A stretch of DNA of 64,000 nt. Origin: Candidatus Bathyarchaeia archaeon (lineage in GTDB: Archaea > Thermoproteota > Bathyarchaeia > Bathyarchaeales > Bathycorpusculaceae). Below, piece after piece: positions 31,598-55,642 of the stretch. The DNA lies in the NCBI GenBank assembly GCA_050010755.1, contig JBEKKK010000001.1:1120001-1184000 (forward strand). Reading direction: 5' to 3'. How positions within the stretch are numbered: position 1 is the stretch's first letter; each line of letters opens with the position of its first letter. A model generated the notes under the pieces. It was not told the DNA's origin. It saw only the letters and a program-made list of their open reading frames with translations, and made no database searches. The position numbers were made by a program, and so were the translations under genes.

Positions 31598-32569
31598 CTA
31601 CGGTGGTGCCACCCATGGAATCATCATACTCTTCTGCCTGTCCATCTCCTTCCAGTAGTCCCACTCTTTTGCGGTCATTCTCTCTATTTCTTCGATCATG
31701 CCATGGGTCAGGTGTTCGAATCTTTTTTGCATTCTCAGATATTCCTCCACATGTTTCCTCGGTTCTGGCCTGAAACTCAGGCTGAATTTCCCGTTTTCAT
31801 ACTCCCATGAAACCCAGAGCCCAGTCTCCAGAGCGCTTCTGCTCAGGTCCAGAGTGTATTTTGGATCTGTGAACCAGCCCTTAGGACAGGGGACTAGAAG
31901 ATGGATGAACGCTGGGCCGTCGGCCGCCAAGGCCTTCTTCGCCTTGTTGATGAAGTCCAAAGGCGGGTAAAGCGTGGACGTAGCAACATATCTCACGCCA
32001 GGGTGTGCGGCGATTATCAAGGCCACGTTCTTCTTCATCCTCAAGTTGCCAATTCTCTTAACCTTGCCCGTGGGAGTGAACGTTGTAGACGCTCCCCATG
32101 GCGTTGTGCTTGATGCCTGAATCCCCGTGTTGGCGTATGATTCGTTATCGTACAACACGTACAGGAACCTCTTGTAATCGTAACTCATGGCCATGGACAA
32201 ACCTGAGAACCCAATGTCGCCCGTCCCGCCGTCCCCCCCGTACACAACGACGTTAACTTTCTCCTTCTTCCTCTTCCCCTTCATCATCAGACTTCTGAAC
32301 GCCGCCGCTGTGCCCACGCCCGCCGCTCCCCCAGCGCCGAGTTGGGTGTGATACCAGGGAACGGAATATGGCGAGGAAAGGAATTGATGGCCGTTCGCCA
32401 CGTACATGCATCCGGTCGGGCCGAGAATCACCGTTTTTGGACCCGCCGCCTTGAGCAGCAGACGGTAGCCCAAGGCTGCTCCGCATCCAGCGCACGTTCT
32501 GTGGCCACTCGTGTACAAGTCTGCTGAAGGGACGTCTCTGATGGTTCTGATAATAGGTCGTTCGCTCAT
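31598..32569 (-). CDS. 2-oxoacid:ferredoxin oxidoreductase beta subunit (oxalate oxidoreductase-like)
   Basis: GHRTCAGC, GPTGCMYVAN, GDGG TPP motif, YDNESYANTGIQ, PCPKGW. Confidence 0.9.
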   Translation of the reverse strand: MSERPIIRTIRDVPSADLYTSGHRTCAGCGAALGYRLLLKAAGPKTVILGPTGCMYVANGHQFLSSPYSVPWYHTQLGAGGAAGVGTAAAFRSLMMKGKRKKEKVNVVVYGGDGGTGDIGFSGLSMAMSYDYKRFLYVLYDNESYANTGIQASSTTPWGASTTFTPTGKVKRIGNLRMKKNVALIIAAHPGVRYVATSTLYPPLDFINKAKKALAADGPAFIHLLVPCPKGWFTDPKYTLDLSRSALETGLWVSWEYENGKFSLSFRPEPRKHVEEYLRMQKRFEHLTHGMIEEIERMTAKEWDYWKEMDRQKSMMIPWVAPP

Positions 32570-33816
32570 TGATTCTCACCTCTCAGTGTGGGCCACCACA
32601 CGTGTTTCTCAACTACTCCCTTTCGTGAGCCTTTCTGCAGCAACATGACGGCCTGTTCAAAATGCTCGACCGAAGGCTCTCTTCCGCCGACGAACATGAA
32701 GTCCAACAGCAGCGGCCGTGACCTGCTCTCATACAGGGCTGATTTGACCTCGTTAAACAACACACTGGAGGAGTCGGCAGAGCCAAAAGAATATGAAAAG
32801 TCAACAATTCCTACAGCCTTGACTTTCCCCAATGCTTCAACAAGCTCCTTCCATGGAAAGGGCCTGAAATAACGGATCCTGATGACGCCGACCTTGAGGC
32901 CTCCTTGTCGAAGCTTCGTTGCAACGTGCACCGCGTCTTTAGCGTATGCCCCCATGGTCACAAGCGCTATTTCCGCATCGTCCATGTACTTTTCCTCGAT
33001 GAATGGTGGATATTTTCTTCCGACGAAAGCTGCATAATCTCTCCACGCCTCTTGAATAACTTCCATTGCATGCGTCATCGCGTTATCAACTACCTTCCGA
33101 AGCTCGGGACCTATAAGAGATGGAGCTATGTGCTGTGCCTTAGTTACAGGTCCATAGGCAGGATCCAGCGGGTACTGAGGCTTGTACGGCGGGAGAAACC
33201 TCGCAACTCTCTCCCTGGATGGCGGCTCGACTGGAGCGGATATGTGTGTTATCGCTGCGCCGTCTACTGCCACGAAGCTCGGCAGGAGCACCCTACGGTT
33301 TTCAGAGACTCTGTACGCGGCTAGAACCATGTCCAGGGCTTCTTGAGGATCCTTGGCCCATGACATCAGCCAGCCGCTGTCCCTGAAAGTGAGCACGTCG
33401 TTCCATTCCATTCCGAAGTTGCCAGGATCATCAAGGGCCCTGCAGCCGGCCATGGCGACGACAGGCAGTTGCCCCATTGCCGTTACGATGATGGGTTCTG
33501 CCGCGTATGCAAGGCCCACACCTGAGCTTCCCACGAAGGTTCTGGCCCCGACCGCAGAAGCGTGTTTGGCTATTTCAAACTGTGAGTGTTCAGAGTCTGC
33601 ACCTATTATCTCGGCAGCAAACTCTCCGTCTGCCAGCATTTTGGCCAGAGAATTCATGACCCCCGTATACGGTCTAATCGGGTATGCAGCTATGACGTCA
33701 ACGTCCGCAAGCTTAACGGCTTCAGCAATCGCCCTCGTCCCAGTCCACATGAATCTCTTTGGCAGCGTTCTGACAACAGATTTTGGAGCGGTCTTCGGCT
33801 TGCTCAATACTTTCAC
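32566..33816 (-). CDS. 2-oxoacid:ferredoxin oxidoreductase alpha subunit (oxalate oxidoreductase-like)
   Basis: ADVDVIAAYPIRPYTG, SEH, GSSGVG, RALDDPGNFG, FRPFP. Confidence 0.9.
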   Translation of the reverse strand: MKVLSKPKTAPKSVVRTLPKRFMWTGTRAIAEAVKLADVDVIAAYPIRPYTGVMNSLAKMLADGEFAAEIIGADSEHSQFEIAKHASAVGARTFVGSSGVGLAYAAEPIIVTAMGQLPVVAMAGCRALDDPGNFGMEWNDVLTFRDSGWLMSWAKDPQEALDMVLAAYRVSENRRVLLPSFVAVDGAAITHISAPVEPPSRERVARFLPPYKPQYPLDPAYGPVTKAQHIAPSLIGPELRKVVDNAMTHAMEVIQEAWRDYAAFVGRKYPPFIEEKYMDDAEIALVTMGAYAKDAVHVATKLRQGGLKVGVIRIRYFRPFPWKELVEALGKVKAVGIVDFSYSFGSADSSSVLFNEVKSALYESRSRPLLLDFMFVGGREPSVEHFEQAVMLLQKGSRKGVVEKHVWWPTLRGENQ

Positions 33817-33819
33817 CGT

Positions 33820-34977
33820 CTAATAACCATATTCAACGAGCGCATCCTCAATCGCGGTTATCTCCTTCTCATTCAGCCCTTCTTCCGCCAGAAGTTCACT
33901 CATCATGCTAATCGCTTTCGAGGGGCAAATCCGCGCGCATATGCCGCAGCCCTTGCAATAATTCAAATCTATCACGATGCGCTTGGAGTCGATTGCACCA
34001 TCTGGACAGTAGAGAGAACACATCTTACAGTCGGTGCATTTGCTCTTATCTATGGTCGGCCTTAGGAATCTGGCGAATGAGGTCGTGAACCCGACGTTCT
34101 TCTTGTTCTTGGAAGGGCCGAATTCAATCAGGCCAGGAGACAAAGCCTGCCACGACGGTATCGCTTTTATTCTCTCCGCGTAGGACAATGCATCGGCCGC
34201 GGCCTTTTGGTACCTTCGGTACGTTTCTAAATCCCACATTCCTTCGGATTTGCAGGACGATTTTGACTTCCTCTTCTGAGCCATCAGCGTTTCTTTCGCA
34301 GTGATTCTGACCTCAACCGGATCCACATCAGAATAGACTCTTTTCACCAAACCAGTCTTATCTCCATCGCCCGCAGAATCGAGTGCATCCAGCAAATCGT
34401 CGACGCTCACTACATTCCAAGCCTTTGCTAACGCGGCTAACAAGGGAAACGCGATGTTAGTATCGTACTCTTTCGCCCTTATCGTAACCAGCTTTCCGCA
34501 CCAGTCCTGCGCGAGGCACCTCTTCTTAACCAACCTCACGACATCATTCGAGGACAACGACGTGTTAACAACGAGAACAGCGTCTTTCTTCGCGCCGTCG
34601 AACAGCAAAGCCCTCTGCGAAGTCTGGCTGACGAGTATGGTGGGTTCCATGACGACTATGGCGCTGAAAATCTCTCCAACAGGCTCAACCTCCTCGTGCA
34701 GAGTGACATCAATCTTGGGATTACCAATGACAGTGTAAAAGATCATGGGTATGTTATCCCGTTCGGGAGAGTCATCATACCTCATATAATAGTAAGATTC
34801 TCGCCCCGAGACCACGCCTGCAGTTGCCAAGATGCGAGCGAAAGCCGCTGCATGACCAGTGTTTAGCACTCCTCTGCCATGAATGATGACCCAATTCAAC
34901 TGGTCATATTCTGGTATCACGCTTTTCACATCCAGCTCCATGCTGCCGCAATCTAATAAGCCTAGTGTCGGCTTCAC
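33820..34977 (-). CDS. 2-oxoacid:ferredoxin oxidoreductase gamma-delta fusion subunit (2x[4Fe-4S])
   Basis: HGRGV, YDDSPER, LVVNT gamma domain; CTDCKMCSLYCP and CKGCGICARICP; start could be the ATG at 34941. Confidence 0.88.
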   Translation of the reverse strand: MKPTLGLLDCGSMELDVKSVIPEYDQLNWVIIHGRGVLNTGHAAAFARILATAGVVSGRESYYYMRYDDSPERDNIPMIFYTVIGNPKIDVTLHEEVEPVGEIFSAIVVMEPTILVSQTSQRALLFDGAKKDAVLVVNTSLSSNDVVRLVKKRCLAQDWCGKLVTIRAKEYDTNIAFPLLAALAKAWNVVSVDDLLDALDSAGDGDKTGLVKRVYSDVDPVEVRITAKETLMAQKRKSKSSCKSEGMWDLETYRRYQKAAADALSYAERIKAIPSWQALSPGLIEFGPSKNKKNVGFTTSFARFLRPTIDKSKCTDCKMCSLYCPDGAIDSKRIVIDLNYCKGCGICARICPSKAISMMSELLAEEGLNEKEITAIEDALVEYGY

Positions 34978-35371: not shown

Positions 35372-36130
35372 TTAGGTGTGAAGACTGGAGTCGTAGGGCG
35401 CTTTGACGTAGGTGATGACTTCGACTGGGCATTCGCCTGAGAGTTTCAGTGTTTTCTTCCAATCTTCTCCGACGGCTATGAGTAGGAAGACTCCTGACAT
35501 TTCGGCTTTGGCTTTCTTGACGAGGTTGACGAGTGCGGCTTGGGTTTCTCCGCTTTTTATCATGTCGTCTACGACGAGTACGCTGTCGCGTTTTTTGATG
35601 GCTTCTTTCGGGATGTAGATTGTGGAGGTGACACCTGAGCCTTTGAGGAGAACGTAGGTTTCTTCGAGGAAGGCTTTGACGCCAACTTCTTTGGATTTTT
35701 TCGCGACAACGAGGTTGACGCCGAGGGCGTTTGCTACCATGGTTGCGAGGGGCACGCCGTCCACCGCGGCTGACAGCACTTTTGTTACCCGTTTCCCAGC
35801 AAAGTTTGCGAGGGCGTGGTTGGCAGCCTGTTGCAGGATGTTGTAGTCGCCTATGATTTCGGTGTTATCAAAGTATCCGTCTTCGTCGAACCTAATTCTG
35901 CTGCGTAGTTCCGGTTCAAGACCGACGAGTCGTGTGAGAACTTTCCAGAGCTGCTTCGCCCGCGCCGTGTTGGGCAGAACGTGGCCCTTGGCGTACCTGC
36001 TGAGGACTGTTACTGGCAGGCCAGTTTTTGACGCCAATTCACGATAAGTTATGTTTCGTTTGTACTTGGCAGTTCTGAGAAGCTCGATGGTCATCAACCG
36101 AAGCTTCAAATCCTCTGCGTGCGTGCTCAC
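35372..36130 (-). CDS. HTH-XRE plus phosphoribosyltransferase-domain protein (PurR-like architecture)
   Basis: TYRELASKTGLPVTVLSRYAKGHVLP HTH; VLVVDDMIKSGET PRPP-binding loop. Confidence 0.88.
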   Translation of the reverse strand: MSTHAEDLKLRLMTIELLRTAKYKRNITYRELASKTGLPVTVLSRYAKGHVLPNTARAKQLWKVLTRLVGLEPELRSRIRFDEDGYFDNTEIIGDYNILQQAANHALANFAGKRVTKVLSAAVDGVPLATMVANALGVNLVVAKKSKEVGVKAFLEETYVLLKGSGVTSTIYIPKEAIKKRDSVLVVDDMIKSGETQAALVNLVKKAKAEMSGVFLLIAVGEDWKKTLKLSGECPVEVITYVKAPYDSSLHT

Positions 36131-55542: not shown

Positions 55543-55642
55543 TGGTGCGGTCGCCGGGATTTGAACCCGGGATCGCAAGCTTGGAAGGCTTACACTGGCC
55601 TTTGGAGGCTTTGTGTCCTAAACCAGTCTAGACGACGACCGC
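55543..55642 (-). tRNA. tRNA-Gly(TCC) with a 21-nt intron at 29/30 (55590-55610) and encoded CCA
   Basis: GCGGTCG/CGACCGC acceptor, CAAGC/GCTTG anticodon stem after splicing, CCGGG-TTCAAAT-CCCGG; ACAC/GTGT central helix with 3-nt bulges. Confidence 0.93.

Follow-up and report, generated by a model that had tools for sequence, protein, structure and literature searches.

Oxalate, an acid of plants and fungi, abounds in soils and peat, and to our knowledge the only route by which it is oxidized anaerobically and without coenzyme A (CoA) is one enzyme from one bacterium. This enzyme, the oxalate oxidoreductase (OOR; EC 1.2.7.10; PDB 5C4I, 5EXD, and 5EXE; NCBIfam NF045790-NF045792) of Moorella thermoacetica, is a 2-oxoacid:ferredoxin oxidoreductase (OFOR) described as consisting of three subunits: alpha (domains I-II), beta (domain VI), and a gamma-delta fusion (domains III-V) (PMC5020499). 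OOR is described as needing no CoA (PMC5020499; PMC12337175); Asp116 and Arg31 are named as important in its "bait and switch" mechanism, and Arg109 as common to the whole OFOR family (PMC5020499). Considered here is a three-gene operon of Candidatus Bathyarchaeia archaeon, found in a 64,000-nucleotide stretch of DNA (the window; assembly GCA_050010755.1, contig JBEKKK010000001.1, positions 1,120,001 to 1,184,000 of the forward strand). The favored reading, at a probability of roughly 0.55, is that the operon encodes a three-subunit, thiamine pyrophosphate (TPP)- and [4Fe-4S]-dependent OFOR of the OOR type that would convert oxalate to two CO2 and reduced ferredoxin independently of CoA; by analogy with Moorella OOR, this hints that some archaea oxidize oxalate to CO2 without oxygen.

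The three genes, each with an intact reading frame in the window list of open reading frames (ORFs), lie head to tail on the minus strand; a 3-nt gap separates the gamma-delta and alpha genes, and the alpha and beta genes overlap by 4 nt. Two lengths of the gamma-delta product, which differ in the start codon, are used by public gene callers. An earlier note, made from the sequence of this DNA alone, had pointed out six of the motifs listed below (YPIRP, RALDDPGNFG with its Asn codon, HGRGV, GHRTCAGC, GPTGCMYVAN, and YDNESYANTGIQ), and the window translation places all six where that note had them.

33820-34977, minus strand: gamma-delta fusion gene, 385 amino acids (aa) from GTG 34977, or 373 aa if the start is ATG 34941
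32566-33816, minus strand: alpha gene (domains I and II), 416 aa
31598-32569, minus strand: beta gene (domain VI), 323 aa
33670-33684, minus strand: YPIRP, alpha residues 45-49, in which Arg48 is the equivalent of Moorella OOR Arg31
33412-33441, minus strand: RALDDPGNFG, the switch-loop equivalent in alpha, in which Arg126 corresponds to Arg109, Asp130 to position 113, and Asn133 to position 116 (codon 33418-33420)
34867-34881, minus strand: HGRGV in gamma-delta, at the site of the glycine-rich HGRGGQG loop of ordinary gamma subunits
33925-34038, minus strand: two CX2CX2CX3C motifs of the ferredoxin domain in gamma-delta, Cys314-324 and Cys341-351 (Pfam Fer4 families)
31874-32506, minus strand: span of beta with the proximal [4Fe-4S] ligands predicted from the alignment, Cys26, Cys29, Cys54, and Cys228 (VPCPKGW), and the TPP/substrate motifs
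32483-32506, minus strand: GHRTCAGC in beta, with Cys26 and Cys29
32393-32422, minus strand: GPTGCMYVAN in beta, with Cys54
32117-32152, minus strand: YDNESYANTGIQ in beta, a TPP/substrate motif alongside GDGG

Each of the three subunits is nearest to Moorella OOR, both among solved structures and among NCBIfam models. The alpha subunit, which has the Pfam domains POR_N and PFOR_II, best matches 5c4i_A in a phmmer search of the PDB (E=1.6e-95, 323.8 bits), followed by 9bt4_B of the four-subunit pyruvate:ferredoxin oxidoreductase (PFOR) of Methanosarcina (219.9 bits). For beta, with the Pfam domain TPP_enzyme_C, the best match is 5c4i_C (E=1.2e-89, 303.9 bits) and the next is 9bt4_C (227.9 bits); gamma-delta matches 5c4i_B (E=2.6e-17), mostly via its ferredoxin part. 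The alpha and beta matches greatly exceed what chance would give. In the phmmer alignment of alpha, the segment ADRT LDPPGDFGEE of 5c4i_A (T of DRT being residue 110) faces the window loop; Arg31 and Arg109 are kept, Asp116 is replaced by Asn133, and Pro113 is replaced by Asp130. The alignment to Moorella OOR that the earlier note had given, in which Arg109 is matched by Arg and Asp116 by Asn, is thereby reproduced. At the position of the YPIRP arginine, 90 of 94 ordinary relatives have Thr and the other 4 have Ser.

The gamma-delta protein consists of domain III and a two-cluster ferredoxin domain V encoded by one ORF, which bears out the earlier description of a fused subunit with RGV in place of RGGQG. 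Pfam detects the two 4Fe-4S motifs in this protein and no recognizable POR gamma domain. An AlphaFold model built from 27 aligned sequences (mean pLDDT 84.1, pTM 0.86; residues 1-18 below 50) has as its top eight Foldseek matches exclusively Moorella OOR delta chains (E 3.4e-19 to 3.9e-17, approximately 340-360 columns, TM by target 0.74-0.81), ahead of PFORs (E approximately 1e-11) and of PorC alone; as modeled, the gamma-delta fold is OOR-like. All eight cysteines of the two CX2CX2CX3C motifs are invariant in the 27 aligned sequences and, together with beta Cys26, Cys29, Cys54, and Cys228, the alignments show ligands for three [4Fe-4S] clusters to be kept.

The glycine-rich loop of domain III is missing. 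In an alignment of 29 archaeal, 25 A-type, 25 D-type, and 7 canonical gamma sequences (the types are defined below), HGRGGQG is present in 7/7 canonical PorC sequences; in its place are HGRGVLNTG in the archaeal N-type, YRGVFQK in the A-type, and TRGIIMDK in the D-type, and Moorella OOR delta (5c4i_B) has WARGVVMNK at this site. An insertion, Y.D.P.R.N.P, is common to the gamma part of all three types. Domain III is described as forming a P-loop that binds CoA (PMC8091585), and the binding of CoA as being through its pyrophosphate (PMC13768988); the glycine-rich gamma loop is presumably the P-loop of PMC8091585, and the archaeal enzyme, like OOR, would then act without CoA. At their C-terminus, the archaeal gamma-delta proteins carry a conserved acidic tail, L.EEE....AL.EYG[YF] (window 33823-33900, minus strand), which Moorella OOR delta lacks.

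The beta subunit is expected to bind the TPP pyrophosphate and the proximal cluster. The CXGC motif is described as ligating the proximal cluster in the OFOR family (PMC5020499); the roles of Cys54, Cys228, and the TPP/substrate motifs are predicted from the alignment. Eleven beta positions are common to the N-, A-, and D-types and absent from 7 canonical PorB sequences, and the derived motifs of these types are GCMYVAN (GC.EV.S in canonical PorB), HTQ.G (H..FEN), and SYANTG (AYMNTG).

In a HMMER search of 1.84 billion cluster representatives, [YF]PIRP occurs in 30 of the 150 best matches listed, many of them fragments, and is accompanied by one of three loop types:

N-type (archaeal): loop RALDDPGNF
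A-type (bacterial): loop RALDDPGAF; representative P0122, 46% identical to window alpha
D-type (Moorella-type): loop RTLDPPGDF; representative P0123, 45% identical to window alpha

Window alpha is 57-89% identical to N-type, 42-50% to A-type, and 29-39% to YPITP enzymes. The D-type representative passes the NCBIfam OOR alpha model (583, cut-off 500), and those of the A-type (399) and N-type (385) score below it. By their labels, D-type loci belong mostly to Acidobacteriota, and A-type loci to Methylomirabilota, Acidobacteriota, Armatimonadota, and others; several bacterial assemblies carry two or three A-type copies. Most of the Acidobacteriota D-type operons (L061-L140; for example, L062:2156-6986) include a ketopantoate-reductase-like gene, a GntR/FCD regulator, and a 756-aa Cdc48-type AAA ATPase. 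In the same operons, gamma is a 215-aa protein of its own, and the delta ferredoxin domain forms the C-terminus of a 610-aa GltD-like flavoprotein, a composition that suggests that this OOR is wired to NAD(P).

Two trees place the Arg31-type alphas apart from ordinary enzymes. For the quick tree, 301 alpha sequences were thinned by identity to 116 rows (IQ-TREE, LG+C20, 394 columns); by SH-aLRT, all Arg31 sequences form one clade (99), within which are the D-type (99), the A-type (100), the N-type (99), and the A- and N-types together (89). The careful tree has 61 rows, namely 36 Arg31-type sequences, three extra Bathyarchaeial ones included, and 25 outgroup rows from the nearest clades of the 116-row tree; P0140, P0177, and P0200, which are fragmentary or compositionally odd, were left out. 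Its support values are 100/98 for the superclade, 100/99 for the D-type, 100/100 for the N-type, 99/95 for A+S, and 99/95 for N-type with A/S. The N-type is thus sister to the A-type and both together are sister to the D-type, with ordinary pyruvate and isovalerate enzymes separate. Grouping with the ordinary pyruvate (POR) or 2-ketoisovalerate (VOR) oxidoreductases, which the earlier note had named as the outcome that would speak against it, is seen neither in the two trees nor in the PDB and NCBIfam rankings.

In the class sample, three Bathyarchaeia genomes (L223:2840-4042, L224:2851-4050, and L225:3058-4293) have Arg31-type alphas whose loop is either RALDDPGAF, as in the A-type, or RMLDDPGSF, with Ser; in the 61-row tree these enzymes take a basal position in the bacterial A-type clade. 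This branching hints at an archaeal origin of the bacterial A-type clade, and it may be that all enzymes of the LDDPG family go back to Archaea and reached soil bacteria later.

The archaeal clade is large. A word-indexed search of 5.8 billion proteins with window alpha gave 120 best matches listed, at 64-100% identity; the names among them are "pyruvate ferredoxin oxidoreductase alpha subunit" or similar, and none is oxalate oxidoreductase. A scan of one genome per species found 37 loci with 57-89% alpha identity, which by their labels comprise 17 Bathyarchaeia or Bathyarchaeota; 8 Desulfurococcales, Sulfolobales, Fervidicoccaceae, or Thermoprotei; 1 Methanomethylicia; 2 Nitrososphaeria; 5 Thermoplasmatota; 2 other Euryarchaeota-labeled; 1 "uncultured archaeon"; and 1 short contig binned as a bacterium. 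YPIRP and R[AS]LDDPGNFG are present in 33 of these loci by script and in L029 by translation, so that Asn116 is invariant in every archaeal relative with a readable motif; the motifs cannot be read in the 3/37 loci that start inside alpha at a contig end. ORF clustering shows the gene order gamma-delta, alpha, beta in 29 loci, and tblastn shows it in L001, L035, L029, and part of L019; the other loci lack upstream DNA. Compared with those of L001, the three window genes have dN/dS of 0.05-0.10 at dS 0.67-0.79; they are under strong purifying selection. Within a sample of 201 genomes of the class, 9 have an N-type enzyme (at least 57% identity), the window's genome counted, and 0/27 other sampled genomes of the same family have one.

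Some individual loci have features of their own. The bacterial bin is a 7.7-kb contig labeled "Candidatus Acidoferrum" (L034) with an N-type alpha of 76% identity, which probably reflects a binning error or recent transfer. In the Bathyarchaeion G013 (L226:2924-5980), the N-type alpha and beta genes are followed by two genes of the Pup-ligase family (PF03136), which is unusual in archaea. In L011 (10623-11886) and the related loci L012 and L032, a FolD gene and the end of a formate-tetrahydrofolate (THF) ligase gene lie approximately 3-5 kb downstream of the N-type operon.

Column counts over 35 N-type, 78 A-type, 77 D-type, and 94 YPITP/YPISP alphas, in approximate Moorella numbering, identify 14 positions that are fixed in the three Arg31 clades and rare in the 94 ordinary enzymes (R31, Y33, M37, Q62, G79, S80, G82, D112, G115, F117, G118, E120, W136, and P252). 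Position 116 is not among them: the majority residue is Asn in the 35 N-type sequences (at least 90%), Ala in the 78 A-type, and Asp in the 77 D-type (at least 80% each), and Ser is present in two further types (G003 and P0161). Ordinary enzymes have Asn in 39/94 and Ser in 23/94 at this position, and the 25 outgroup rows have Ser in 12 and Asn in 8. Position 113 is Asp in the N- and A-types, Pro in the D-type, and mostly Ala in ordinary enzymes. With Asn or Ser usual in ordinary enzymes and Asn invariant among the archaeal sequences, the most economical interpretation is that position 116 had a small polar residue ancestrally and that Asp116 would be an innovation of the Moorella-type clade. 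The earlier note had called the Asn an altered switch-loop residue; that description has to be turned around, as Asn116 is fixed in the archaeal clade and common in ordinary enzymes, and the clade's own change is Asp113 where OOR has Pro.

By analogy with Moorella OOR, oxalate would bind at the alpha/beta interface, with one carboxylate held by Arg126, the family-wide Arg109 equivalent, and the other by Arg48, the Arg31 equivalent that is specific to the Arg31 superclade. Attack by the TPP ylide would be followed by departure of the first CO2; two electrons would reach ferredoxin by way of the beta proximal cluster and both delta-domain clusters, and the second CO2 would be released without CoA. 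Because the archaeal clade has no Asp at 116, the negative charge is proposed to come from Asp130 (position 113 of the same loop), or else this clade would manage without a switch. The ferredoxin so reduced could supply electrons to the acetyl-CoA synthase pathway or to a [NiFe] hydrogenase. A further-reaching reading, in which the archaeal clade is a true oxalate:ferredoxin oxidoreductase working without Asp116, with the consequences for Archaea and for the Asp116 switch that are given below, is held more tentatively, at clearly worse than even odds.

Gene neighborhoods bear on the substrate. In 38 archaeal loci (the 37 of the species scan and the window locus), the sole informative recurrent neighbor is a transporter of the major facilitator superfamily (MFS), which is directly adjacent in 5 (L005, L014, L020, L021, and L025) and belongs to the oxalate/formate antiporter family; a transporter in G013, four genes away and on the other strand, was not counted as adjacent. 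The L005 transporter passes the OxlT equivalog model (382.9 > 335), that of L020 passes the family model (405 > 374.85), and the other three score under both. In bacteria, an OxlT-type transporter (463-486 bits) is found at 43/69 D-type and 34/67 A-type loci, usually together with a GntR/FCD regulator, and at 7/67 A-type loci the tricarboxylate-type TctCBA takes the place of the OxlT-type transporter.

Several observations weigh against oxalate oxidation by the window enzyme. The best NCBIfam models for all three subunits are those of OOR, but each score lies below its cut-off: 372.2 bits for alpha (NF045791, cut-off 500), 353.2 for beta (NF045792, cut-off 590), and 93.4 for gamma-delta (NF045790, cut-off 230). 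Window alpha is only 41.5-46.7% identical to the D-type clade, which passes the OOR model, and it lacks Asp116. The transporter family holds lactate carriers, and the L-lactate carrier model NF049980 scores close to or higher than the oxalate models in some transporter loci; 4/5 adjacent transporters fall in one alpha subclade of the 116-row tree, leaving approximately two independent associations. The window's genome has no transporter of the oxalate/formate family (best match 71.6 bits, cut-off 374.85), and no oxalate-related gene is seen in the window gene annotation around the operon. Nor is there enrichment across the class sample, in which transporters of this family, called at E<=1e-40 and none of them over the model cut-off, occur in 2/9 genomes with an N-type enzyme and 32/192 without. 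In the literature searched, no assayed member of the archaeal or A-type clade was found. Finally, D- and A-type operons occur together in at least five bacterial assemblies (L111/L208, on one contig within approximately 12 kb; L092/L187; L131/L215; L106/L209; and L079/L205), which may mean different electron partners or different substrates. The grouping with OOR in the earlier note stands; falling under three cut-offs and outside the passing clade, the window enzyme is a sister enzyme, as that note had considered, rather than an orthologue.

The alternative that best survives these points retains the chemistry and fold (CoA-independent or CoA-poor, with an Arg31-type anion site) and replaces oxalate with another small acid, such as glyoxylate, oxamate, mesoxalate, hydroxypyruvate, or oxaloacetate, with loop and pocket differences setting the specificity. 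The missed equivalog cut-offs, the coexisting D- and A-type operons, the TctCBA loci, and the lack of a transporter in the genome or of enrichment in the class would all suit such an enzyme, as would the residues at which the N-type differs from both bacterial clades (Asn rather than Ala/Asp at 116, Trp rather than His at 121, His rather than Gln at 211, Asn rather than Gln/Met at 38, and Gly rather than Thr/Ala at 35), some of which are near the Arg31 motif or the switch loop in sequence. Against it, linked transporters in all three clades, where present, belong to the oxalate/formate family; the enzyme has in common with OOR Arg31, Arg109, and the loop scaffold (D112, G115, F117, G118, and E120); and no genes of purine, allantoin, or glyoxylate metabolism were found to recur beside the operon in the 38 archaeal loci. 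Oxamate, which the earlier note had put forward as a substrate, is left unsupported, as no purine or allantoin genes recur nearby and the recurrent neighbor is a transporter of the oxalate/formate family. A different small acid is judged less likely than oxalate but is the main rival.

Public annotation implies a third possibility, an ordinary CoA-dependent pyruvate or 2-ketoisovalerate:ferredoxin oxidoreductase isozyme. Close relatives bear the pyruvate name, PorA_Arch (304.7 bits) and PorB (296.8 bits) are the second-best NCBIfam models for alpha and beta, and the residue at position 116 is one common in ordinary enzymes; but those two scores are far under their cut-offs of 550 and 405, Arg stands in place of the Thr31 of YPITP, gamma has no glycine-rich loop, and separation from ordinary enzymes has 100/98 support. 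Moreover, the genome already encodes a canonical PorCDAB-type set (L054, the PorA/VorA-like set, with YPITP and a GRGGQG gamma). An ordinary isozyme is improbable. A decaying or non-functional paralogue that has lost its catalytic Asp, which might be supposed from the absence of Asp116 and from the patchy distribution in the class and in the enzyme's own family, is close to refuted by the intact frames, the low dN/dS, the conservation of all cluster-binding Cys and TPP motifs, and a clade found in several archaeal phyla, in which the three genes keep their order in all loci that have upstream DNA.

Oxidation of oxalate to CO2 and reduced ferredoxin thus remains the preferred reading, and the genome (2.19 Mb, 93.5% complete) offers a setting for it. 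Six other OFOR alpha genes are present, namely the PorA/VorA-like gene, two KOR-like genes, an alpha-beta fusion, a two-subunit archaeal type, and IOR, and the window enzyme is therefore a seventh, specialized OFOR. CdhC (acetyl-CoA synthase) and a [NiFe] hydrogenase are also encoded, and oxalyl-CoA decarboxylase and formate-THF ligase were not found in the genome at its 93.5% completeness. Among the sequencing runs listed for this DNA, none was of RNA, which has no bearing on whether the genes are expressed; one run labeled peat metagenome contains 0.91 of the sampled sequence words.

The surroundings of the operon in the window are housekeeping genes (LeuRS, AlaRS, HisRS, EF-2, and TiaS), together with a convergent DedA gene, CutA, gamma-glutamyltranspeptidase, and an upstream gene for a protein with HTH_3 and phosphoribosyltransferase domains. 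The last of these (window 35372-36130, minus strand) is directly upstream on the same strand after a 394-nt gap and is a possible regulator; in the related archaeal loci, no gene clustered with it. Recent horizontal transfer was considered from composition and set aside: at 0.524, the operon GC ranks among the highest 1.2% of genome windows, but the neighboring housekeeping genes are similar in GC and GC3. Elsewhere in the window, Rfam finds a 97-nt tRNA (42.5 bits; 55546-55642, minus strand), and ARAGORN calls none at any position of the window; judging from its length, this may be an archaeal tRNA with an intron.

No archaeal OOR-type enzyme, or YPIRP outside Moorella, was found described in the literature searched; an earlier mention in the OFOR phylogeny of Gibson et al. 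(2016) or in the primary OOR papers is possible. If the archaeal enzyme does oxidize oxalate, it would represent a pathway of oxalate breakdown not previously described in Archaea, in a peat Bathyarchaeion with acetyl-CoA synthase and hydrogenase; surveys restricted to frc/oxc or to Moorella-type OOR would miss an archaeal oxalate sink whose low-potential electrons would serve acetogenesis or the production of H2 in peat and hot springs; and the annotation "pyruvate ferredoxin oxidoreductase" would be wrong for hundreds of archaeal genes. The Asp116 "switch" of the Moorella enzyme would then be a late add-on, replaceable by Asp113 or dispensable. With Asp, Ala/Ser, or Asn at 116 and Pro or Asp at 113, the three clades form a natural mutant series for the bait-and-switch mechanism.

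Compared with Moorella OOR, the window enzyme has the same three-subunit layout with fused domains III and V, the same gamma-delta fold, YPIRP (Arg31), Arg109, the same loop scaffold, OOR-type beta motifs, and a domain III without the glycine-rich CoA loop. It differs in Asn for Asp116 and Asp for Pro113, in Trp121 and His211 (His and Gln, respectively, in the two bacterial clades), in a gamma-delta of 385 rather than 315 aa with a conserved C-terminal tail, in its archaeal host, and in its distance from the sequences that pass the OOR model (approximately 45% alpha identity, and scores under all three equivalog cut-offs), outside which it forms a separate clade (100/100) from the Moorella type. 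The bacterial A-type clade is its sister group (99/95) and shares the LDDPG loop with Asp113, the absence of Asp116, the gamma-delta/alpha/beta order, and annotation as pyruvate ferredoxin oxidoreductase; it differs in Ala (or Ser) at 116, in alpha sequence (42-50% identity), and in usually having a GntR/FCD regulator at the head of the operon and an OxlT-type transporter after it, both absent at the window operon. The four-subunit archaeal PorABCD of Methanosarcina acetivorans (PDB 9BT4), the second-best structural and NCBIfam match, belongs to the same superfamily, with the same cofactors and domain set; in contrast to the window enzyme, it has YPITP instead of YPIRP, a GRGGQG loop, and gamma and delta as separate genes, and it lies in a separate clade at 29-39% alpha identity.

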